Source: Escherichia coli (GTDB lineage Bacteria; Pseudomonadota; Gammaproteobacteria; Enterobacterales; Enterobacteriaceae). From it: a stretch of DNA of 64,000 nt. The position numbers were made by a program, and so were the translations under genes. The notes under the pieces are model-generated. The model was not told where the DNA came from and ran no database searches. It saw only the letters and a program-made list of their open reading frames with translations. Positions within the stretch are counted from its first letter, which is position 1; every line of letters starts with the position of its first letter. Shown piece by piece: positions 1-30,381 of the stretch. Location: NCBI RefSeq assembly GCF_003790525.1, contig NZ_CP033635.1; one strand, given 5' to 3'.

Positions 1-3000
1 GCTCAACCCGCAGCCCATCGCCAACCGCAGCTTTTGCGCGCAAGGTCTGGCCGGGCGTTCGCTGGTGGCCTGGCCGCAGATAGATACACAACAAACCATT
101 CCACTGCTTTACCTGCTGACCTCGACCGGTTATCCCTATGAGGGGACGGTGGCGCTGGCTGAACAGAAAGTGACGCTGAACATCGCGCCCGCACAGGGCG
201 ATTTAATTTCGGTGAGCGCCAGTGGTTATAACGAAACGATCGCGGCGGCAAAAACCACCGTTGGTGGCACTATCACGCTGACCGTCACCACCAAAGATTG
301 TCAGGGCAACGTCGCGGGTAATATTCCGTTTATTATCAAACGTAAAGATGCCCAAAACCGTCAGGGCGCGGTGAATAATACCGCGCCGGTGGTGCTGGGG
401 AGTACCGAGTTAACGACGACGGCAACCGAGTATCGTGGCACATCGGATGCCAACGGTACGGCAACCATCACGGTGACCCAACCTAACGGCCCCGGCGTCA
501 AAACGCCGCTGGTGGCGAGTATTTCCGGCATTGCGCAAACCAGCGAAACGGCGGTGATTTTTACCGTACTTACCAGCCCGGACGTGGCGCAGGCCACGAT
601 GTGGGGCCATATGGCGGAAACGGTTGAGGCACACGGCTACACGTTCAGCAGGCCAAAACTGGCGGCGGAAGTCAGCAATGAAAATGCCACGGTCGTCGAT
701 CACAACGAAACCTGGTCCACTTTCACCTGGAGCGGGGCAGACAGCCATTGCACCGTGCTGCCGGGCATGCGCCATTTCGGCGCACTGGCGACGGTGATTC
801 CCTCCACGGTACAGACTGTCCTTGGCTGGCCGATGCAGGATGATTATTACTGGACATCGCTGGCGGGCACTACCGGGCAGCACCATGCAGCGGATGTCTC
901 TAACCGTGCTGAAGCGCAAAAGCCGGATAGCACCACGTTTCTTGTAAGCTGCGTGGACAAACCCGCGCCTGACGTCGAACCGAAAATCGTCCTTACGCCA
1001 GAAAACTATGATGATACGGCACAGGCGATGAAAGCGAAGGTGGGTGAGGATGCCACGATGCGTCTGACGATCACCGACAATAAAAACAACGATCAACCGC
1101 TGGCGTATTATTACTTCTCGCTGCATCTGGATGACGGCGTTAACCGTAAGAATCAAACCGACTCCGCCTGGGAAGCCCATCCGGTGCAGATTACTGGCGG
1201 CAGTAATTTTCGCCAGGTCGACGCACATACCTATGAAGGCATGACCGACGCCAACGGCCAGGCTTCGCTCACCCTGAGCCAGCCCGGCGGCGCGGGGGTG
1301 AAAACCCATATCACGGCGAAAATGCGCAGCGATTTTAACGCCACGGATGCCAAAGATGTGATTTTTACCGTAATCACCAGCCCGGACAGCGACAAAGCGC
1401 GGATGTGGGGCCATATGCGCGGCATTATTGAGTCCGGCAGTCTGTATAAACGCCCGTTGCTGGCGGATGAAACCGAGCATGAACTGGGAACAGTGCGGGA
1501 AAACAACGAAGACTGGGCGTTGTACGATCAAAACACCAGTATGCAGGCGGAATGCGGGGTGGGTCATATACCGCGTCAGAGCTCACTGGAAAGCCTGTTT
1601 TCAGCCCATCCCGGTAACGCGATTGGCACTGAGTATGGCTGGCCTACCGCACAACAGAGCTACCTAAGCGCGGTGGAGCAAGAAACGCATTCATCGGTGA
1701 ATCTGGGGAACGGGAGCGTCGACAGCTATTCCGGCTTTAAGCAGAATTACCTCTCCTGTTCGGGTAATGAGATGGTAGCGAATGTTGAAGTCAGCACCGA
1801 TCATGATGTGTCTGTTGGCACCCAAGCGCAAGCCAAAGTGGGTGACACCATCGTAATGACCGTGCGTACGATTAACGCGCTAAATAATTCCCCGGTACCC
1901 TTTAGCGCATTCACCATTACCAAAGGTATGGGATATAACCGAGCGGGACAGGTGAGCGGGTTTGATGACCCGAGTAGCGGCTCAATCACGATGGATAACT
2001 CGCAATATGGTACATCACAGCCATCGATGGTTTATGCGGGAACAACCGATGTCCGGGGCGTGGCGACGGTCGAGATTAAGCAACCACAGGGCGTCGGGCT
2101 AAAAACGGTGCTGAGCGTAACACCGGTAAATTCCTACCTGCCGAATACCGTTAACTACAGCGTTATTTTTACTACCCCAACCAGCCCGGACGTTTCCGGC
2201 GCGCAGATGTGGGGCCATATGGATGAAACGATTACCGTTGATTCATCAACCTTTACCCGGCCTAGGCTGGCGGCGGAAATCGCCAGCCCGGACGGAACCC
2301 TGACTGAAAATAACGAAATCTGGGCGCGCGTGAGCCAGGCCAATACGTCCAGTACCAGCAAAGGCGGCTGCGGCACCAATATGCTGCCGCGTCGCTCCCA
2401 GCTAAGCGCGTTGTATAGCGCCAACAGTGGTAATGCAGTGCAAACGACGCACGGCTGGCCAACGCAGCGTCAGCCCTACTGGAGCAGCTCTCCGGCGGAT
2501 GTGACGCCGCACTTTTTCACGATAGCGCTGAACGATGGCGCACAAGCTATCGGCGGCGATACGCCGGTTTACGTCAGTTGCCTGACGACGGCGAACAAAC
2601 CTGCCAGCAGCATTACGCTGGAGGTGGTTGATAAAGCGCAATGGAATGCCGGGAATAACGCGGCAACGCTGAAAAAAGGCGAAACGCTACAGGTTAAGGT
2701 GACGGTAAAAGATGCACAGGGCAACGCGTTAGCGGATATGCCATTTACCCTCAGTCGCGGTGATGGCTATACCCGTAGCGGCGAAAAACATATTGCCGGT
2801 AGCGGCGATGCGCTGGTGGCGCCGGTGGTGGTCAATGGCGGGCTGGCCGATGAAACAACGTTGAATGACACCGCAACGGTGTATACCGCCATGACCGGCA
2901 GTGACGGCAGCAAAATTCTTAATATTACCCGTCCGGATACCCACGGCACCAAAACGGCGCTGACGGCAACGCTTTACTCCGATGCGACGAAAAAAGACAG

Positions 3001-6000
3001 CCTGGACACGATCTTTACGGTGGTTACCAGCCCGGATAGCAGCCAGGCGAAAATGTGGGGGCATATGCCGGAAACGGTGACGGCTGAGGACGGTACGGTC
3101 TTTAAACGCCCGCGGTTACTGAAGGAACTGAGCAGTCAGACTGGGCGAACATCAACGCTTGAAGACAACGAAAACTGGGCGTTGTTTAACATTAATTATG
3201 CGAGCTCTTCCACGACGTATAGTGGCTGTGGAACCAACTATATTCCGACTCAGGCCGGTCTGACGTCACTGTTTGCTAATAATGCGGGCAACACCATGAA
3301 AACCGTGCAGGGCTGGCCGGTGGCAACGCGCTATTTGTCCAACACGTCCGACAATGGCAGCATGGAGCAGCGTAACTACAAGGCGGTCGATCTCAGCAAT
3401 GGCACGAGTGCGGCAGTGTCATCAACGGCGCTGCAACTGCTGACCTGTCAGACTACACCGGTAACCACGGTGAGCCAAATCCTGCTGGAAGCGGCAGATC
3501 CGGCGACGCTGGATACCACCTATAACGTGGTAAAAGCGAAAAAAGGCGAAGAATCCGTGGTGCGCGTCACCACCAAAGATGCACAAGGCAACCTGGTGGG
3601 CAATACGGCATTTATCCTGACGCGTGCCAACAGCGTGAGTCGGGCTAATGCATCAGCGACGATGAGCGTGGGCTCGTTGACGGTGACGGATGCCTGGGGC
3701 AATACGCGAAATAATTTCCAGTCGACAAGTGAAACCATTTACGGCGTGACCGGTGCCGACGGGTCAACGACATTGACCCTGAAACAGGATAACAGTACCG
3801 GGTTAAGAACCGATCTCACGGCAAAACTGGATACGTCCAGCAGCGTCAAGGCAACGCTACCGGTGGTCTTTACCGTCGTGACCAGCCCGGATTCGCCAAA
3901 AGCGAATTTTTGGGGACATATGGCCGAAACGGTGGCGGCCTCCGATGGTTCAGTCTATAAACGCCCACTGTTGCTGGCAGAGCTGGCCAACACTGGCGGG
4001 CGACAAATCAGTTCAGAGAACGGGGAAAGCTGGGTACGATTCACCTGGAATCAGTCGACAGATCCTTCTGTAAGCGGCTGCGGCGTTGCGTATATGCCAA
4101 CGTTGGCAGGCCTGCAAGCGTTGTATGACGCTAATAGTGGTAATGCAATGAGTACGGTACAGGGATGGCCGGTAAAAGCGACCTATCTCACCAATACCCC
4201 AAGTGACACGCAAACGGGGAGCCGTTACTACAATGTGGTGCAACTGGATTCTGGCGCAGCCTCGCAAATCACGACGAACACGGGTGTACTGCAAACCTGC
4301 CGTACAACGCCGTTGACGGCTGCCAGCCAGATTACGCTGGAGGCCGCGGATCCTGCGCAATTTGTCAGCATTGACAGCACGCTTAGCGCTGTCAAAGTGC
4401 AGAAAGGCGATAGCGTGCCGATCCGCATTTCGACTAAAGATGCGCAGGGCAATTTCGTCGGCAATACGCCGTTTGCCCTGAAACACGCGAACTCGATCAA
4501 TCGTCAAAATGTGTCGTCATCGCAGAAAGTGTCGGTCACGACGGAGGTGGGTACGACGGTGGATACCAGTGCAACAACCACCCTGTATGGCGTAACCGGG
4601 CCAGACGGAACCACCACGATGACGCTCCGACAGGATGCGTCCACCGGGTTAAGAACCGACTTTTATGCCCTGTTGAACGATACCGGCGTGTCGTCGGACA
4701 CCTTGCCGGTGATCTTTACCGTCATCACCAGCCCGGATACGCCGCTGGCGGCCAACTGGGGCCATATGGCGGAAACCTTTACCAGTAGCGAAGGCGTCAC
4801 CTTCAAGCGGCCTTCCCTCAAAGCTGAACTCTCTGGCGGTACGGCCATAACGGTCAATAATGAAGTCTGGTCGCGCCTGACAGCGGCGGAGAAAGTGGAT
4901 GCCAGCAAGGCCGGGTGTGATGAGACGTATCAACCGCTGGTGAATGACATGCAGGGGTTGTATGCGGATTACCCTAACGGCCAGTTAGGATCGGTGCTCG
5001 GCTTGCCGACGTCTGCCGGGTATTGGTGGGCCTACGACATGATGATGGTTTCTGGCAACTGGACTAATCAGGCATTTTCACCTGTTAATGGTCAGTTGAT
5101 GCAGGCATCGTCCAGCTATACGGCGATCGTGATGTGTCTGGTAGAACCACATACGGAAGCAGCCACAATAGAGCTTACTTCAACGGCGCAGGACGCAGCA
5201 AAATCGGCCAGTAATGGTGGACGACCGAGCGCCGTAGCGAAGAAAGGCGAGACGATTCCGTTGACGGTGACCGTGCGTGATAGCGCCGGGAACCCGATGC
5301 CATATGCTGAGTTTACCCTCACGCGTGAAACGACGCTGGATCGCTCGAAAGCAACCGTTAACACGAGTGCGGACGACCTTACCGTAACGGCATTGGTACC
5401 CGCGAATACAAATAGTGTGTTGGCAGCAAGTGGAGCAAAACTGATCGGCACGACGGGCAGCGATGGCAAAGCGACCTTTGAGGTGAGTCAGAATGCGACG
5501 ACCGGGCTGGCGACGCCGTTAACCGTGACGCTGGCGCGTGATACGACGAAAGCCGCCACGCTGGATGTTATCTATACGGTGATCACCAGCCCGGATTCGC
5601 CGAGTGCGAAATTCTGGGGGCATATGCCGGACACCTTTACCAGCTCGACGGGCGTCACCTTCAAACGACCGCTGCTGAAAGCAGAAACCAGCTCAGGCTC
5701 ATCGATTAGCTCTAACGGCGAAGTTTGGTCATATATGAGCAACGCGCAAAATTTAACATCGACAGATTGCCCGCTCGAAAATCAACCGCGCAGTAATGAG
5801 CTGTTGGATTTGTATAGTGATCACCCGAACGGCACGCTAATGACCGACCTGGGGTTACCCGTATATGCAGGTAACTGGTGGGCCTATGATATGGTCATGC
5901 TGAGTGGAACGTCGTGGACTTATCAACTCATCAGCCTGAAAGACGGAACCATTACGCAGAAGGGGACAACCAGTGCGTTGATGCTTTGCCTGGCACAGCC

Positions 6001-7684
6001 GCATCCGGCCGGCGTCAGCGTAACATTGACGTCATCCGCACAGGATGACGCCAGAACCACCAGCAATGGCGGCCGTCCCAGCGCGTCAGCGAAAAAAGGT
6101 AACTCAATACCGATTGTGGTAACGGTAAAAGATCGTGATGGCAACCCGTTGGCGGGCGAAGCGGTGACGCTCAAACGTGATTCAGCGTTGAGCCGTTCAG
6201 GAACAATCGTGGGGACGCCAGCGAATGAAATAAAGTTGACGGAACTGACGCCCGTGTCGGCGACATTCCCGCTGGTTTCAAATGGTACACAATGGCTTGG
6301 TTTCACCGGTAGCGATGGTACGGCGACATTCAATGTTGAACAGCCTGATACTGTCGGCCTGGCAATCCCCTTTAACGCCATCCTGGCCCGTGACACGGCA
6401 AAGGTATCTACTCTGGATCTGATTTTTACCGTCCTCACCAGCCCGGATGCCGCATTAGCAACTTACTGGGGCCATATGCCGGATACCGTCACGGCGGAAA
6501 ACGGTGCTGTCTTTGAGCGCCCTAAACTGTGGAAAGAGCTGCCGTCGACATCCGGGGTAAGTCAGATAACGAATAGCAATGAAGCCTGGCCAGTGTTTAA
6601 CGCAACGCAGAGGGCTGACAGCAATCTCAGCCCTTGTGAAGCGGCGCGTCGACCATTGAGCGATGATTTAGAAGCGCTCTATACACGTTATCCAGGAAAC
6701 ACGATTACCGCGCAAATTGGCTGGCCTACGCAGTATGCATGGTGGGCGGTGGATAACTGGGAAGGGGGCAGTAATCCGCAGGCCGTCAGCCTGGTAAATG
6801 GTTCGAGAGGCCAATATAATCCCGCTCATCAGGCCTGCCTGGTTAACCCGCGTGCGAGCGTTTCCAGCGTCACGCTGACATCAACGGCGCTGGATGACGC
6901 CACACAGGCGGCGACGGTGAAAAAAGGCGACGCCGCGCCCATTGTCGTTACCGTAAAAGACAGCGCCGGGAAGCCGGTGCCGAATATCGCTTTTATCCTA
7001 AAACGCGGTGAGGCCGTGCCGCGTAACAGCGGGGCGACGCTGTATGGCGATGTGGATGCGATGGACGATTTGACTGTGCAACCTTCATCCGGTGCGGCAG
7101 TCACGTTGGCTGACAGTGGAAATACCATCGACGGAGTCACGGGAGCGGACGGTACGGCAAGCTTTACCGTTCGTCAGGATAATACGCCAGGATATAAAAC
7201 GCCGTTGACGGTGACGCTGACGGATAACGCCACCATAACGGCGACGCTGGACACGATTTTCACCGTGCCGACCAGCCCGAATGTCGCCACGGCGTATTTC
7301 TGGGGTCATATGGCGGATACCGCCACGGTAAGTGGCAAGACGCTGCATCGCCCGCTATTAAAATCGGAGTTGCCGTCAGGCGCTACCGCAGCAGCAACGC
7401 CTGATGTAAATAATGAAACCTGGGCACTGGCGCATGTTATGGATTCCTCTAAATGGGATGTCGCGCAGCAGTGTGGCAGTATGAATAACGTGCCGAGCAG
7501 TGCCGAATTACAAACATTACACTCCGGCTTTAGCACATTGGGATGGCCGTCCTCGATAAGCTTCCCGTATTTATCTACTGATAAGGCTGGGTCGTTCTAT
7601 TGTGGTGTTGATGAAGGCTCTGGCAGTCTCAACTGTGGCATTCAGCCTGCGAAAACGCCGGGGTTTGCAACCTGCTTCCAGTAA
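1..7684 (+). CDS. giant surface adhesin, 5'-truncated by window edge; tandem Big_1-like (invasin/intimin-type) repeats; RatA/RatB/SinH-like
   Basis: Reading frame is open from position 2 to stop at 7684 (ORF track starts at a GTG at 65). About 9 repeats of ~280 aa each end in a TSPD-x5-WGHM motif (e.g. [35 protein letters not shown]). Lies next to xseA, where such adhesin loci occur in enterobacteria. Confidence 0.6.
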
Positions 7685-7715
7685 CCTTATCCACCTTGTC
7701 AATATGAGGTTCCGA

Positions 7716-12571: not shown

Positions 12572-13822
12572 GTGCTTACCGATACAAAATTAAAGAACCT
12601 CAAGCCACAGGACAAACTGTACAAAGTTTCCGATCGTGACGGGCTGTATGTAGCTGTGCTTACGTCAGGTACGGTCTCGTTTCGCTATGACTACCGTATC
12701 AACGGTCGCCGCGAAACACTGGTAATCGGGCAGTATGGGCGTGACGGTATCAGCCTGGCAGAAGCGCGAGAAGAACTGATTGCTGCAAAGAAGCTGCTTA
12801 AAGCAGGCCAGTCGCCGGCTGCGGCTAAACGTGACGGTATCAAAAAGATTCGTGGTGCCGAGACGTTTGCGGTACATACCGACAGTTATATGAAACACGT
12901 CATCCTGGCTGAAAGTACCCGCGCAATGAAGCAGGCAGTGATCGACCGTGACATACTTCCTGTTCTTGGCAACAAAATGATGACTGAAATTACCACATCG
13001 ATGGTTCGTGATTTGTGTGACCGGATTGTCGAACGCGGTGGTCGGGCAACAGCAGTACAGGCCAGGGAGATCATTAGCAGCGTATACCGTCACGCCAATG
13101 ACCGTGGTCATGGTTTGTTTAATCCTGCGGCTGACATTAAACCTTCGTCTATCGCCATATTTAAACCACGAGAGCGAACACTGACACCAGAAGAAATTGG
13201 TCTGTTCTTCCGCACGCTGGATGCCATTGGTGCTATGGGCACTATGAAAATGGCTTTAAAGCTGGTGCTTATCACTATGGTTCGTAAAGGCGAATTCACC
13301 AATGCAACGTGGGACGAAATAGATTTTAAAAAATGGACATGGACAATTCCTTCAGACCGCATGAAGGGAAGCCGGGCGCACGTTATTTACCTGCCAAAAC
13401 AGGCACAGGATATATTGGTTGGGTTGCAGATGTGCGCTGGTGGAAGTGAATATCTGGTTCCTGGTCGTTACAATTTCCGGAAGCCATTATCTAATGCCGC
13501 ACTGAACTCTCTGATCGACAGAACGGTGAAAATAATAAATGAAGATGGTGAGCATATTCAGGGCTTCACCGTACACGATATGCGCCGTACAGCCAGTACG
13601 TTGTTGCATGAGGCTGGTTATCCTTCAGACTGGATTGAAAAGGCTCTGGCACATGAGCAGAAAGGTGTGCGCGCCGTATATAACAAAGCGGAATACGCCA
13701 GACAGCGCGCCTACATGTTGCAGCAGTGGGCCGATATGATTGATTCCTGGATTAACGGGGAGCATACGGATCTAATTCCGTTCTCCCCGTCGAAGTTTGA
13801 GAAGTGGATGGCGGGGGAATAA
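12572..13822 (+). CDS. int: tyrosine-type phage integrase (P4-like family)
   Basis: GTG start; N-terminus MLTDTKLKNLKPQDKLYKVSDRDGLYVAV and C-terminal catalytic region VHDMRRTASTLLHEAGY...AHEQKGVRAVY typical of tyrosine recombinases; adjacent to attL. Confidence 0.9.
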   Translation: MLTDTKLKNLKPQDKLYKVSDRDGLYVAVLTSGTVSFRYDYRINGRRETLVIGQYGRDGISLAEAREELIAAKKLLKAGQSPAAAKRDGIKKIRGAETFAVHTDSYMKHVILAESTRAMKQAVIDRDILPVLGNKMMTEITTSMVRDLCDRIVERGGRATAVQAREIISSVYRHANDRGHGLFNPAADIKPSSIAIFKPRERTLTPEEIGLFFRTLDAIGAMGTMKMALKLVLITMVRKGEFTNATWDEIDFKKWTWTIPSDRMKGSRAHVIYLPKQAQDILVGLQMCAGGSEYLVPGRYNFRKPLSNAALNSLIDRTVKIINEDGEHIQGFTVHDMRRTASTLLHEAGYPSDWIEKALAHEQKGVRAVYNKAEYARQRAYMLQQWADMIDSWINGEHTDLIPFSPSKFEKWMAGE

Positions 13823-27987: not shown

Positions 27988-28064
27988 TGGCGCGGCATGC
28001 AGGATTCGAACCTGCGACCAACCGCTTAGAAGGCGGTTGCTCTGTCCAACTGAGCTAATGCCAC
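27988..28064 (-). tRNA. tRNA-Arg (anticodon UCU), phage-encoded
   Basis: 77-nt cloverleaf folded by hand: acceptor GUGGCAU/AUGCCGC, D-stem GCUC/GAGC, anticodon stem ACCGC/GCGGU with loop CUUCUAA, T-arm GCAGG-UUCGAAU-CCUGC, encoded CCA. Confidence 0.85.
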
Positions 28065-28701: not shown

Positions 28702-30381
28702 ATGGCGGAAACAACTAAAGAGCGATTGAACAAACAGTTCGCACAACTTGAAAGCGAGCGTCAGTCGTTCGAGCCGCACTGGCGCGAGTTGAGTGATTAC
28801 ATCAACCCGCGTGGTTCCCGCTTTCTGACTTCTGAGGTCAACCGTAACGATCGACGCAATACACGCATTATTGATTCGACCGGGACTATGGCGGCGCGCA
28901 CTCTCGCCAGCGGCATGATGTCAGGCATCACAAGCCCCGCGCGTCCGTGGTTTCGCCTGGCTACGCCAGATCCTGAAATGATGGATTATGGCCCTGTTAA
29001 GTTGTGGCTTGAGGCGGTGCAGAACCGCATGAACGATATGTTCAATAAGTCGAATCTCTACCAGTCTCTTCCGCAGTTATACGGAAGCCTCGGCACATAC
29101 AGCACTGGTGCAATGGCGGTGCTGGAGGATGACGAGGACATCATTCGCACAATGCCATTCCCGATAGGCAGTTACTACCTGGCTAACTCACCTCGTGGCA
29201 GTGTGGACACCTGTTTTCGCAAGTTCTCTATGACTGTTCGTCAGCTTGTTCAGGAGTTCGGGCTAAATAACGTCAGCGAATCCGTAAAAAGCATGTGGGA
29301 AAGCGGCACCTACGAGAAGTGGATTGAAGTGATGCATTCGGTTTACCCGAACATTGACCGCGATACATCGAAGCTGGATAGCAAGAACAAGCCATTCAAA
29401 TCGGTTTATTACGAGGTTGGTGGCGATAACGACAAGTTGTTGCGTGAGTCCGGATTCGATGAGTTTCCAATTATGGCTCCGCGCTGGGAAGTTAACGGCG
29501 AAGATGTTTATGGATCATCATGCCCGGGTATGCTGGCGCTTGGACCTGTTAAGGCATTGCAGCTTCTCCAGAAGCGCAAGTCGCAGTTGATTGATAAAGC
29601 CACCAATCCGCCGATGGTTGCTCCGACTTCCCTCAAGAATCAGCGCGCCTCCCTTCTTCCTGGCGACATAACGTATATCGATCAGATTACTGGTCAGGAT
29701 GGTTTCAGGCCTGCTTATCTGGTTAACCCCAGTACAGCAGATCTGGTAGCAGACATTCAGGACACCCGCCAAATCATTAACAGCGCCTACTTTGTCGATC
29801 TGTTCATGATGTTGCAGAACATCAATACCCGCTCGATGCCTGTTGAAGCGGTGATCGAAATGAAAGAAGAAAAACTTCTGATGTTGGGGCCGGTTCTGGA
29901 GCGTCTGAACGACGAATGTCTTAATCCTCTCATTGACCGCGCTTTCTCGATGATGGTGCGTAAAAACATGCTGCCGCCACCGCCTGACGCGATGGAAGGT
30001 ATGCCCCTGAAGGTCGAATACATTTCTGTCATGGCTCAGGCGCAGAAGTCTATCGGCCTGTCCAGTCTGGCGTCTACGGTCAACTTCATTGGTCAACTTG
30101 CGCAAGCGAAACCAGAAGCTCTCGACAAACTCAATGTTGATCAGGCGATCGATGCATTCGCTGATATGTCCGGAGTGTCTCCAACCGTCATTGTTCCGCA
30201 GGAACAGGTTGAGCAGGCTCGCCAGCAACGGGCACAGCAGCAACAGCAGCAACAAATGATGGCGATGGGAATGGCGGCGGCACAGGGCGCCAAGACGCTA
30301 AGCGAAGCTAAAACTTCGGATCCGAGTGTTTTGTCAGCTATGGCGAATGCAGTTAGTGGTCAGGGTGGGCAATCACAATGA
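28702..30381 (+). CDS. portal protein
   Basis: 559 aa; position after terminase, before scaffold and capsid; size typical for portal. Confidence 0.65.
   Translation: MAETTKERLNKQFAQLESERQSFEPHWRELSDYINPRGSRFLTSEVNRNDRRNTRIIDSTGTMAARTLASGMMSGITSPARPWFRLATPDPEMMDYGPVKLWLEAVQNRMNDMFNKSNLYQSLPQLYGSLGTYSTGAMAVLEDDEDIIRTMPFPIGSYYLANSPRGSVDTCFRKFSMTVRQLVQEFGLNNVSESVKSMWESGTYEKWIEVMHSVYPNIDRDTSKLDSKNKPFKSVYYEVGGDNDKLLRESGFDEFPIMAPRWEVNGEDVYGSSCPGMLALGPVKALQLLQKRKSQLIDKATNPPMVAPTSLKNQRASLLPGDITYIDQITGQDGFRPAYLVNPSTADLVADIQDTRQIINSAYFVDLFMMLQNINTRSMPVEAVIEMKEEKLLMLGPVLERLNDECLNPLIDRAFSMMVRKNMLPPPPDAMEGMPLKVEYISVMAQAQKSIGLSSLASTVNFIGQLAQAKPEALDKLNVDQAIDAFADMSGVSPTVIVPQEQVEQARQQRAQQQQQQQMMAMGMAAAQGAKTLSEAKTSDPSVLSAMANAVSGQGGQSQ

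Follow-up and report, generated by a model that had tools for sequence, protein, structure and literature searches.

A giant RatA-like protein of Escherichia coli, a surface-adhesin candidate with nine diverged Ig-like and lectin-like units encoded next to sinH and sinI

The window, a stretch of 64,000 nucleotides from Escherichia coli contig NZ_CP033635.1, starts inside a very large gene on the plus strand. The reading frame extends from nucleotide 2 to the stop codon at 7682-7684 and is translated without interruption (nucleotides 2..7684, 2,560 codons); as there is no stop upstream, the gene is 5'-truncated by the window, in agreement with the preliminary description. The complete CDS of the identical E. 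coli SMS-3-5 sequence (NC_010498.1, 100% identity in megablast) has 8,076 nucleotides and encodes 2,691 amino acids, so that the first 392 nucleotides are missing from the window; it is annotated as 'adhesion domain-containing protein' (WP_000109693.1). Residues 3-2691 match positions 1-2683 of the NCBIfam equivalog model NF011844 ('RatA-like protein') with 5562.4 bits (cutoff 3870), which confirms the earlier proposal of a giant adhesin-type protein of the RatA/RatB family. The region thus encodes the already annotated E. coli RatA-like protein, a candidate surface adhesin of 2,691 residues. The allele is of the phylogroup-F/SMS-3-5 type and shares 90% identity with the ST131-type allele and 66% with the B2/Nissle-type allele; 1,737 of 5,426 complete genomes have a match to the gene. 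Its features in the window, all on the plus strand, are:

1..7684, plus strand: 5'-truncated CDS of the E. coli RatA-like protein (translation, megablast, NF011844)
2..217, plus strand: C-terminal part (amino acids 132-203) of the family-specific N-domain; signal peptide and N-terminal motif lie upstream of the window
218..1021, plus strand: unit R1 (BIg21 + InvE_AD), signature at nucleotides 572-613
1022..1825, plus strand: unit R2, signature at 1376-1417, crossover site of a natural R2/R3 deletion
1826..2671, plus strand: unit R3, signature at 2180-2221
2672..3526, plus strand: unit R4, signature at 3026-3067
3527..4372, plus strand: unit R5, signature at 3881-3922
4373..5230, plus strand: unit R6, signature at 4727-4768, crossover site of a natural R6/R7 deletion
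5231..6082, plus strand: unit R7, signature at 5585-5626
6083..6916, plus strand: unit R8, signature at 6437-6478, crossover site of a natural R8/R9 deletion
6917..7681, plus strand: unit R9, terminal and shorter, signature at 7271-7312, protein end ...GFATCFQ

The annotated gene order is sinH, a SinI family gene, the RatA-like gene and xseA: the gene is the third and last member of a horizontally acquired sinH-sinI-ratA cassette located between der/yfgJ and xseA. The cassette has been published as the 'ila' cluster, and PMC12928451, citing Shea et al. 2022, states that its deletion mutants show attenuation in murine UTI. The only Pfam domain found in SinH is an IAT_beta barrel (PF11924, E 2e-105), with no POTRA match. 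Adjacent IAT_beta, SinI-like and Rat-like genes are present in E. coli, Salmonella, a metagenome contig and Buttiauxella. The E. coli cassettes comprise three alleles and, in one chromosome, a second, divergent cassette; the Buttiauxella cassette occupies a different chromosomal site and its Rat N-domain is joined to another payload. Between sinI and ratA there is a terminator-like hairpin, and a review states co-transcription only for sinH and sinI (PMC12525524); ratA expression may therefore be uncoupled. A comparison with the RatA, RatB and SinH families had been suggested: the similarity holds for RatA, but not for SinH, as neither the units nor the N-domain of the RatA-like protein have detectable sequence similarity to SinH (hhalign probability 0.1% for the repeat). 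SinH is a neighbour and probably a partner of the RatA-like protein, not a homologue of its repeat.

The nine tandem units have 255-286 amino acids each and every unit carries the signature TSP[D/N]-x6-WGHM, starting at residues 191, 459, 727, 1009, 1294, 1576, 1862, 2146 and 2424 of the window protein (nucleotide positions in the list above), with spacings of 268, 268, 282, 285, 282, 286, 284 and 278 amino acids. A DNA repeat finder recovered the same nine copies as a 77-nucleotide family, spaced by 804-858 nucleotides. Whole-protein self-BLASTP returned the identity hit only and the units were aligned one by one instead: all nine align, with 25 invariant columns that include two invariant cysteines per unit. 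The about nine near-periodic repeats of ~280 amino acids seen in the preliminary description are thus real and their periodicity is supported by the alignment of the units. The signature had been given as TSPD-x5-WGHM at the end of each repeat; it is indeed found in every unit, but the spacer has six residues, the last copy (R9) reads TSPN, and its position is internal to each unit, at the junction between the Ig-like and the lectin-like domain.

Pfam identifies nine BIg21 domains (PF05688; E 7e-204, 664 bits) alternating with nine InvE_AD domains (PF05689; E 9e-288, 940 bits), the combination that characterises DUF823/DUF824 (BIg21 + InvE_AD) repeat adhesins; matches of this strength greatly exceed what chance would give. 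The segments had been called Big_1-like: their Ig-like character is correct, but they belong to BIg21 and not to Big_1 (PF02369), which reaches 19.9 bits with a gathering threshold of 34.9, with no stretch passing alone. The unit matches PDB entry 5n40 by sequence (E 1e-46) and its AF2 model has a pLDDT of 80.9. In each unit, the Ig-like BIg21 domain packs onto an 'adhesion domain' of the C-type-lectin-like type, in which a pair of cysteines is conserved; Yersinia InvE has the same two-domain architecture in its receptor-binding tip, as have, at a greater distance, intimin and invasin. The RatA-like protein has the Ig-like passenger ending in a disulfide-bonded C-type-lectin-like binding domain that is used to recognise inverse autotransporters.

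The array could be a hypervariable, contingency-type repeat or an assembly artefact, in which case the copy number in the window would be unreliable. Alleles with 7, 8, 9 and 11 units do exist and many database entries stop at contig ends inside the gene. However, the units are mutually only 28-44% identical at the amino acid level and any two of them share at most 20 identical nucleotides, in four alleles, and TRF did not find a long-period tandem array in the gene; the array is thus not a high-identity tandem repeat. Nucleotide identities of 70-75% between units, obtained from gappy global alignments, are inflated, and we relied on exact-word length and amino acid identity. Moreover, at least ten complete genomes of diverse origin carry these 7.7 kb with 100% identity, 25 genomes are in the band of at least 99% identity, and orthologous units of different alleles (50-74% identity) are more alike than paralogous units (28-46%), indicating that there is no homogenisation and that the array is stable. 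The nine units are ancient, diverged paralogues and this, together with the short exact matches, makes assembly collapse or rapid slippage unlikely. We consider the contingency or artefact explanation very improbable, and the suspected proneness to assembly collapse is not supported: the age and divergence of the units make repeat numbers in assemblies trustworthy. Internal repeats were also considered as the cause of the contig-end truncations in ST131-type short-read assemblies and rejected, as that allele has no exact repeat of 18 or more nucleotides.

Nine units is the commonest state by an overwhelming margin: in a rough count, clusters with a nine-unit representative have ~11,700 member sequences, whereas those with 7, 8 or 11 units have a few dozen, and intact alleles with these numbers are rare. 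Three independent one-unit deletions are derived from the window allele, with 98-99% identity to it elsewhere, and in all three BLASTN and three-way alignments place the crossover within the TSPD or WGHM codons, at 6-16 nucleotides of microhomology. For the 8-unit alleles, BLASTP had suggested a junction near unit position 220; this was an over-extension through the paralogous lectin domain and the BLASTN and three-way alignments moved the junctions to the signature codons. The 11-unit allele has two extra units that protein alignment places at the signature, with the crossover of the insertion unmapped. Shorter E. albertii forms of the same 90% cluster were rejected as unit-number variants, being truncated by a frameshift, a stop or a changed start site. 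The signature is thus a demonstrated breakpoint for the rare, in-frame loss of whole modules, and rare short-homology recombination within the TSPD/WGHM codons removes entire units in register. The expansion and contraction expected by the preliminary description accordingly occurs over evolutionary time only. Such module loss at the signature matters for typing and for the design of RatA-directed vaccines or diagnostics. Allelic divergence is greatest in the distal units R5-R8 (47-59% identity, versus 62-84% in R1-R4), which may be a hint to the topology of the protein.

The full-length protein starts with a Sec-type signal peptide (MSVCLKPGKIIVLLGMLAAFMLSDFARA/G, judged by eye), followed by a family-specific, beta-rich N-domain of ~175 amino acids (AF2 pLDDT ~90). 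Among 1.84 billion representatives, this N-domain occurs in 41 clusters and only at the N-terminus of Rat-like proteins, and a search with its model returned only generic Ig-like matches. The mature N-termini of Rat-like and SinI-like proteins have the motif [ST]TGx[IL]xGTxP in common, which reads STGEFNGTVP (amino acids 37-46) in the full-length RatA-like protein; the corresponding peptide of SinI is TTAEFEGTIP. It is present in every N-terminus inspected (~16 Rat-like and 8 full-length SinI-like sequences), in the Buttiauxella proteins only as the core TGxIxGTxP with the upstream W missing, and is absent from the inspected N-termini of the barrel proteins. A loose version of the pattern has 19 matches in 506,784 six-frame residues, 17 of them at the N-terminus of Rat-like or SinI-like proteins. 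Rat-like and SinI-like N-termini align with an hhalign probability of 93.5% and an E-value of 2.4e-7 that is not blind, as the segments had been anchored on the motif beforehand; beyond this short motif, neither the N-domain nor the units have similarity to SinI. In the AF2 model the motif is unstructured, with a pLDDT below 50, next to the N-domain, which is modelled with confidence.

With its position directly downstream of a SinH-type barrel gene and the motif after the signal peptide, the RatA-like protein has both features that we propose for a 'SinH-associated partner', and the shared motif may serve SinH as a signal for docking or export. More specifically, and as a tentative idea only, the motif peptide could be the signal for the recognition, export or tethering of barrel-less partners by SinH-type inverse autotransporters, possibly via an LPDLGS-like segment that is conserved in the periplasmic N-terminus of the barrels. 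If true, type Ve secretion would have a genuine two-partner branch, defined by this signal and able to present a fibre of ~280 kDa that carries nine lectin-like heads.

An export device is not evident in the protein itself: Pfam found no IAT_beta barrel (PF11924) in amino acids 1-224 or in the remainder, the TPS (haemagglutination activity) domain is absent, amino acids 1-224 match no Pfam family at E <= 0.1, and by inspection the signal peptide does not end in a lipobox ([LVI][ASTVI][GAS]C). The overall best explanation, which we regard as reasonably probable, is that of a RatA-like cassette protein without an export device of its own that depends on SinH for its display as a multivalent fibre. 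After Sec export, the inverse autotransporter SinH, possibly with SinI, would take RatA through the outer membrane or hold it there in a two-partner-like manner, and RatA would be recognised by its N-terminal handle, the N-domain together with the motif peptide common to SinI. The C-terminal array would project as a long fibre with nine diverged lectin-like binding heads, so that adhesion to host tissue would be multivalent and antigenically variable. Heinz et al. 2016 (PMC4943183) had already put forward the hypothesis that the inverse autotransporter encoded next to them has Rat-like proteins as its substrates. According to structural work cited there, however, an occupied inverse-autotransporter barrel is plugged, and the passage of a 280-kDa protein of folded domains through the barrel is thus mechanistically problematic.

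The plugged barrel is also consistent with a different scenario, in which RatA is a barrel-less, invasin-like protein that reaches the surface or is released by type II secretion or another general pathway, with SinH and SinI being mere neighbouring adhesins. Acinetobacter InvL, an intimin/invasin-like protein without barrel, requires the T2SS (PMC9245377), the Sec signal peptide is the only export signal of RatA, and the hairpin between sinI and ratA fits as well. InvL, however, is a lipoprotein, whereas RatA lacks a lipobox, and general secretion leaves unexplained why the trio of barrel, SinI and Rat is kept across genera at different sites and with different payloads, and why both barrel-less partners share an N-terminal motif. 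We therefore consider this scenario unlikely and prefer SinH-dependent display.

RatA may also not be chiefly a host-cell adhesin, but a periplasmic or surface lectin-like scaffold (aggregation, biofilm matrix, glycan binding) or a decaying gene of little function. The C-type-lectin fold is ligand-agnostic and we know of no ligand of either InvE or RatA. Salmonella RatB, on the other hand, is reported to be a caecal colonisation factor (Kingsley et al. 2003), and the attenuation reported for mutants of the E. coli locus likewise argues against a minor role. E. coli, E. albertii and Salmonella often have copies of the gene that are frameshifted or truncated (PMC6540521), indicating that the gene is dispensable in many lineages, and a canine study found ratA more often in control than in disease isolates (PMC7559917). 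Against decay, the 8-kb ORF is intact in hundreds of complete genomes and in three alleles that are 66-90% identical, which indicates purifying selection on the frame. Taken together, a scaffold or decaying gene appears improbable, somewhat more so than general secretion, and adhesion by a SinH-displayed fibre remains our preferred reading.

The gene is not new: ratA is a catalogued ExPEC/AIEC marker next to SinH, and the finding as first stated therefore adds nothing to what is known. SinH itself is being studied as a vaccine antigen. The window protein is the same as the E. coli RatA-like protein (NF011844/PRK15316) of the 'ila' locus sinH-sinI-ratA of ExPEC: it scores above the curated cutoff from end to end, is encoded at the same yfgJ-xseA site and has the same nine BIg21 + InvE_AD pairs, with no substantive difference. 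The 'ila' locus is the counterpart of the Salmonella enterica CS54 island, whose RatA (1,860 amino acids) and RatB (2,435 amino acids) have the same N-domain, motif and unit type and the same place downstream of sinH-sinI. The E. coli protein is nevertheless below both Salmonella equivalog cutoffs (RatA NF011843, 2064 versus 3700 bits; RatB NF011842, ~2255 versus 4079 bits), with the best stretch of both models covering only its first ~1,450 residues; it is a paralogue or an orthologue-group relative that belongs to another equivalog. The Salmonella relative examined (P0128, 1,893 amino acids) has six units in comparison to nine, and E. coli has one rat gene, whereas Salmonella CS54 carries two plus shdA.

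Yersinia pseudotuberculosis InvE (PDB 5N40) is an inverse autotransporter adhesin with one tip on its own N-terminal barrel, going by its designation and the single copy in the fragment, while RatA has nine such tips in series and no barrel. In comparison to intimin and invasin (type Ve), RatA has neither the IAT_beta barrel nor LysM, and the lectin-like domain that these proteins have once, at the tip, is repeated internally; residues for binding of Tir or integrins could not be inferred in RatA. In ZirT-ZirS/ZirU of Salmonella and in FhaC/FHA-type two-partner secretion, a barrel is likewise encoded together with barrel-less, Ig-rich partners with Sec signals, for which Heinz et al. 2016 (PMC4943183) proposed export in trans, but RatA has no TPS domain and SinH has only the IAT_beta domain, with no POTRA match. 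In place of these, the candidate recognition element of RatA would be the ~10-residue N-terminal peptide together with the private N-domain; the motif and the three-gene cassette provide a concrete and mutable target to test partner export by inverse autotransporters, a long-standing unproven idea.

In frame 2 of the plus strand, the window is open from nt 2 through 2,560 codons to a stop at 7682-7684, with no in-frame stop upstream: the gene leaves the window at its 5' edge, as the preliminary description had it. An ORF start at position 65 was rejected as the true start, as it is merely the first GTG of the truncated frame. Window positions 1-7700 are 100% identical to Escherichia coli SMS-3-5 and at least nine other complete genomes; relative to the complete SMS-3-5 coding sequence, ratA (8,076 nt, 2,691 aa, WP_000109693.1), the first 392 nt are absent. 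In the SMS-3-5 annotation, ratA lies directly downstream of sinH ('intimin-like inverse autotransporter SinH') and a gene for a 'SinI family autotransporter-associated protein', and the cassette is positioned between der/yfgJ and xseA-guaBA. The window protein scores 5562 bits with the NCBIfam equivalog 'RatA-like protein' (NF011844, cutoff 3870) and stays under the cutoffs of both the Salmonella RatB and the Salmonella RatA model. Score and neighbours support the suggested placement of this giant repeat adhesin in the RatA family, and the gene almost certainly encodes a RatA-like protein. On the opposite strand, a 385-aa ORF with ATG start (410-1567, minus strand) runs antisense to units R1-R2; it probably arises from the high GC content and scarcity of stops on the strand facing a long gene.

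Gene and domain architecture are already known and annotated, as is evident from the NCBIfam equivalog, the SMS-3-5 annotation and the published locus: in PMC12928451, sinH, sinI and ratA are named the 'ila' cluster, with an origin in the Salmonella CS54 island, and 'ila' mutants are described, with reference to Shea et al. 2022, as attenuated in urinary-tract infection of mice. ratA also serves as an ExPEC/AIEC PCR marker (PMC7559917). We found it in about one third of complete E. coli genomes (1,737 of 5,426), in three allele groups with nucleotide identities, computed over the 5' half of the gene, of roughly at least 95%, about 90% (ST131-type) and about 74% (B2-type, e.g. Nissle 1917).

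Up to the guaA stop, the window differs from SMS-3-5 by only 2 SNPs; past that point the two sequences diverge, so the source strain of the window is not SMS-3-5. A prophage follows directly after guaA (12381 to about 45000), with genes for an Arm DNA-binding-domain integrase (12572-13822), an MT-A70 methyltransferase, RecT, a PDDEXK protein, a DnaT-like protein, a portal (28702-30381) and a head-tail connector; the sole tRNA of the window, tRNA-Arg (anticodon TCT; 27988-28064, minus strand), lies within this region.

The nine-unit periodicity of the array is certain from four sources. A pattern search of the window protein identified nine copies of TSP[D/N]-x6-WGHM, spaced by 268, 268, 282, 285, 282, 286, 284 and 278 residues; a DNA repeat finder, independent of this search, returned nine copies of a 77-nt block around the signature, 804-858 nt apart; the alignment of the nine units has 25 invariant columns, two of them cysteines; and Pfam assigns nine BIg21 (E 7e-204) and nine InvE_AD 'adhesion domain' (AD) matches (E 9e-288). 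The nine near-periodic repeats of the preliminary description are thus real, and some of its details need correction: the signature, given as TSPD-x5-WGHM, is present nine times, but with a spacer of six residues and with N replacing D in the last copy. Rather than ending each repeat, it is the seam between the Ig-like and the lectin-like domain within a unit, at the junction of the last BIg21 strand with the first adhesion-domain element. The segments called Big_1-like are Ig-like, but that name is only loosely correct: the Big_1 score (19.9 bits) is under the threshold of 34.9.

Counting only database relatives in which both termini are normal, Escherichia proteins have 7, 8, 9 or 11 units, and more distant genera have from one or two up to nine. 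Three 8-unit alleles derive closely from the window-type allele (96% nucleotide identity in the first, 98-99% in the other two). Each is short by exactly one repeat period, and three-way alignments place all three crossovers inside signature codons.

Crossovers in the three 8-unit alleles (deletion; units joined; shared sequence; codons)
P0016 (DNA stretch L011): 804-nt deletion; R2/R3; GATGTGGGGCCATATG (16 nt); MWGHM
P0015 (DNA stretch L012): 858-nt deletion; R6/R7; ATCACCAGCCCGGAT (15 nt); ITSPD
P0025 (DNA stretch L002): 834-nt deletion; R8/R9; CATATG (6 nt); HM

An 11-unit allele has its two additional units inserted at the signature position too, as judged by protein alignment; one allele lacks the R8 signature alone. 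The signature is a hotspot, and the events are rare and rest on microhomology: by rough count, about 11,700 member sequences fall into clusters with a nine-unit representative, and a few dozen into those with other unit numbers. The proposed recombinational expansion and contraction is therefore right in kind, with 7-, 8- and 11-unit alleles and crossovers in the signature, but is limited to such rare events.

Units of the window allele share 28-44% pairwise protein identity, the longest identical nucleotide run between any two is at most 20, and TRF detected no tandem array; identity is similarly low and shared runs similarly short in the ST131-type, the Nissle-type and one 8-unit allele. Units of the divergent 11-unit allele are 50-74% identical to the units at the corresponding positions of the window allele and 26-55% identical to their own neighbours, 55% being the duplicated pair. 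By these comparisons the array is older than the alleles and has not been homogenised, which counts against slippage, RecA-type exchange over long identical tracts and short-read assembly collapse; the concern about collapse is unfounded for ratA.

Shorter forms of ratA are common, mostly truncations by frameshift, stop or contig end, consistent with the reported high variability and frequent pseudogenisation of Rat proteins in Salmonella (PMC6540521). Dozens of short-read assemblies with the ST131-type allele (P0048-P0076, P0107-P0120) break within ratA, scattered over aa ~1,820-2,200, on contigs of ~48 kb; within this allele no exact repeat reaches 18 nt, and complete ST131-type genomes have an intact ratA of 8,082 nt. 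Some entries are real frameshift truncations, for example P0119, which stops after 1,827 aa with RLFREMVS and lies on a contig of 774 kb. RatA could be non-adhesive or decaying, but three deeply diverged alleles have all kept an intact 8-kb frame, which speaks for selection, and an adhesin role is probable.

Most of the allelic divergence lies in R5-R8 (window 3527-6916), with 47-59% aa identity to the Nissle allele versus 62-84% in R1-R4; this fits a protein that is attached by its N-terminus and most exposed in its C-terminal part. The ST131-type allele is a mosaic, with 97-98% identity in the N-domain and R1-R2, falling to 75-76% in R5-AD and R8-Ig. Mosaicism and distal divergence suggest inter-allelic recombination or diversifying selection.

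By inspection, RatA has a Sec-type signal peptide (MSVCLKPGKIIVLLGMLAAFMLSDFARA|G) that lacks a lipobox, and Pfam finds no barrel, TPS or other export domain in it; it must therefore have help to cross or attach to the outer membrane. Drawing on the analogy of ZirT-ZirS/U, Heinz et al. 2016 (PMC4943183) proposed that the inverse autotransporter encoded next to them has Rat-like proteins as its substrates. The N-domain (aa 27-215) is private to the Rat family (41 clusters among 1.84 billion representatives) and always N-terminal. Barrel, SinI-like and Rat-like genes are linked in three E. coli alleles, Salmonella, one metagenomic contig and Buttiauxella; on metagenomic contig L006, SinI-like and Rat-like genes are at the contig start and the barrel gene is not visible. 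One E. coli chromosome (L007; AP025682.1, 1367296-1385650) has two tandem cassettes: a divergent one between der and yfgJ (barrel, 731 aa; SinI-like, 311 aa; 2-unit Rat-like, 784 aa) and then the standard sinH-sinI-ratA set (ratA product, 2,693 aa). In Buttiauxella ferragutiae (contig L009, 3656-8242), the cassette is found elsewhere in the chromosome, flanked by dioxygenase and ABC-transporter genes, and consists of barrel and SinI-like genes and a gene for a protein of 413 aa. This protein combines the Rat N-domain and N-terminal motif with an invasin-D4/Ig_Eae-like C-terminus in place of BIg21/AD units, indicating that the N-terminal handle moves with the cassette independently of the payload.

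This motif, W-x8-9-[IFLV]-x-G-T-x-P with the core [ST]TGx[IL]xGTxP, directly follows the signal peptide in all Rat-like and full-length SinI-like proteins inspected (the Buttiauxella pair retains the core alone) and is absent from the barrel proteins inspected. Profile-profile comparison of Rat-like and SinI-like N-termini gave 93.5% probability (E 2.4e-7, 22 columns), with segments anchored on the motif and the test therefore not blind; in an unbiased loose-pattern scan of 506,784 six-frame residues of the DNA examined, 17 of 19 matches were Rat/SinI-like N-termini. AlphaFold models the N-domain confidently (pLDDT about 90) and the motif as unstructured (below 50), and this predicted disorder beside a folded domain is as expected of a linear docking peptide. 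All five barrels (L001:11277-, L005, L007, L009, L010) have an LPDLGS-like motif (LPDLGS, LPSLGS, LPDLAS, LPDLSS) within the N-terminal ~40 residues, in a short periplasmic segment before the beta-domain; it could be the counterpart of the partners' motif. Six SinI-like sequences (L001:13507-14499, L004, L005, L006, L007, L010), from E. coli, Salmonella and two metagenomic contigs, have a cysteine close to where the hydrophobic core of the signal peptide ends (…LAGYCAVPA…), in L005 within a canonical lipobox (IASCC); the Buttiauxella cysteine is in another context (…SIVTCAQA…). Judged by these signal peptides, SinI may be a lipoprotein presenting the shared motif on a short tether. The motif in both partners may be a partner-recognition signal for SinH-type inverse autotransporters.

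There are arguments against export through SinH: inverse-autotransporter barrels are considered to be plugged when occupied (PMC4943183), and sinI is separated from ratA by a terminator-like hairpin (ACAGCATTCCC-GTAT-GGGAATGCTGT plus TTTTCC). The same intergenic region (L001:14500-14608, just upstream of the window) has a second inverted repeat (GTTTTGCTTA…TAAGCAAAAC), and both elements are 5' of the Shine-Dalgarno sequence of ratA. Transcription of ratA may be attenuated, or the gene controlled apart from sinH-sinI; co-transcription is reported for sinH-sinI only (PMC12525524). A type II system could export RatA instead, as it does a barrel-less invasin-like adhesin of Acinetobacter (PMC9245377); that adhesin, however, is a lipoprotein, and this route leaves the conserved cassette and the shared motif unexplained. 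SinH-dependent export or anchoring we hold to be slightly short of an even chance. We infer that RatA would be exported by Sec, its N-terminal peptide and N-domain would be recognised by SinH, possibly with SinI, and it would be displayed as a long fibre with nine diverged lectin-like heads for multivalent adhesion.

The Ig-like half of the unit is matched by intimin D0-D1 and D00-D0 and by invasin, the other half by C-terminal fragments of intimin and invasin and by classical C-type-lectin-fold proteins (tetranectin, CD94, the Mtd tropism determinant and FGE-like enzymes). Each unit is thus an Ig-like domain followed by a disulfide-bonded C-type-lectin-like domain, the same architecture as the receptor-binding tip of inverse-autotransporter adhesins.
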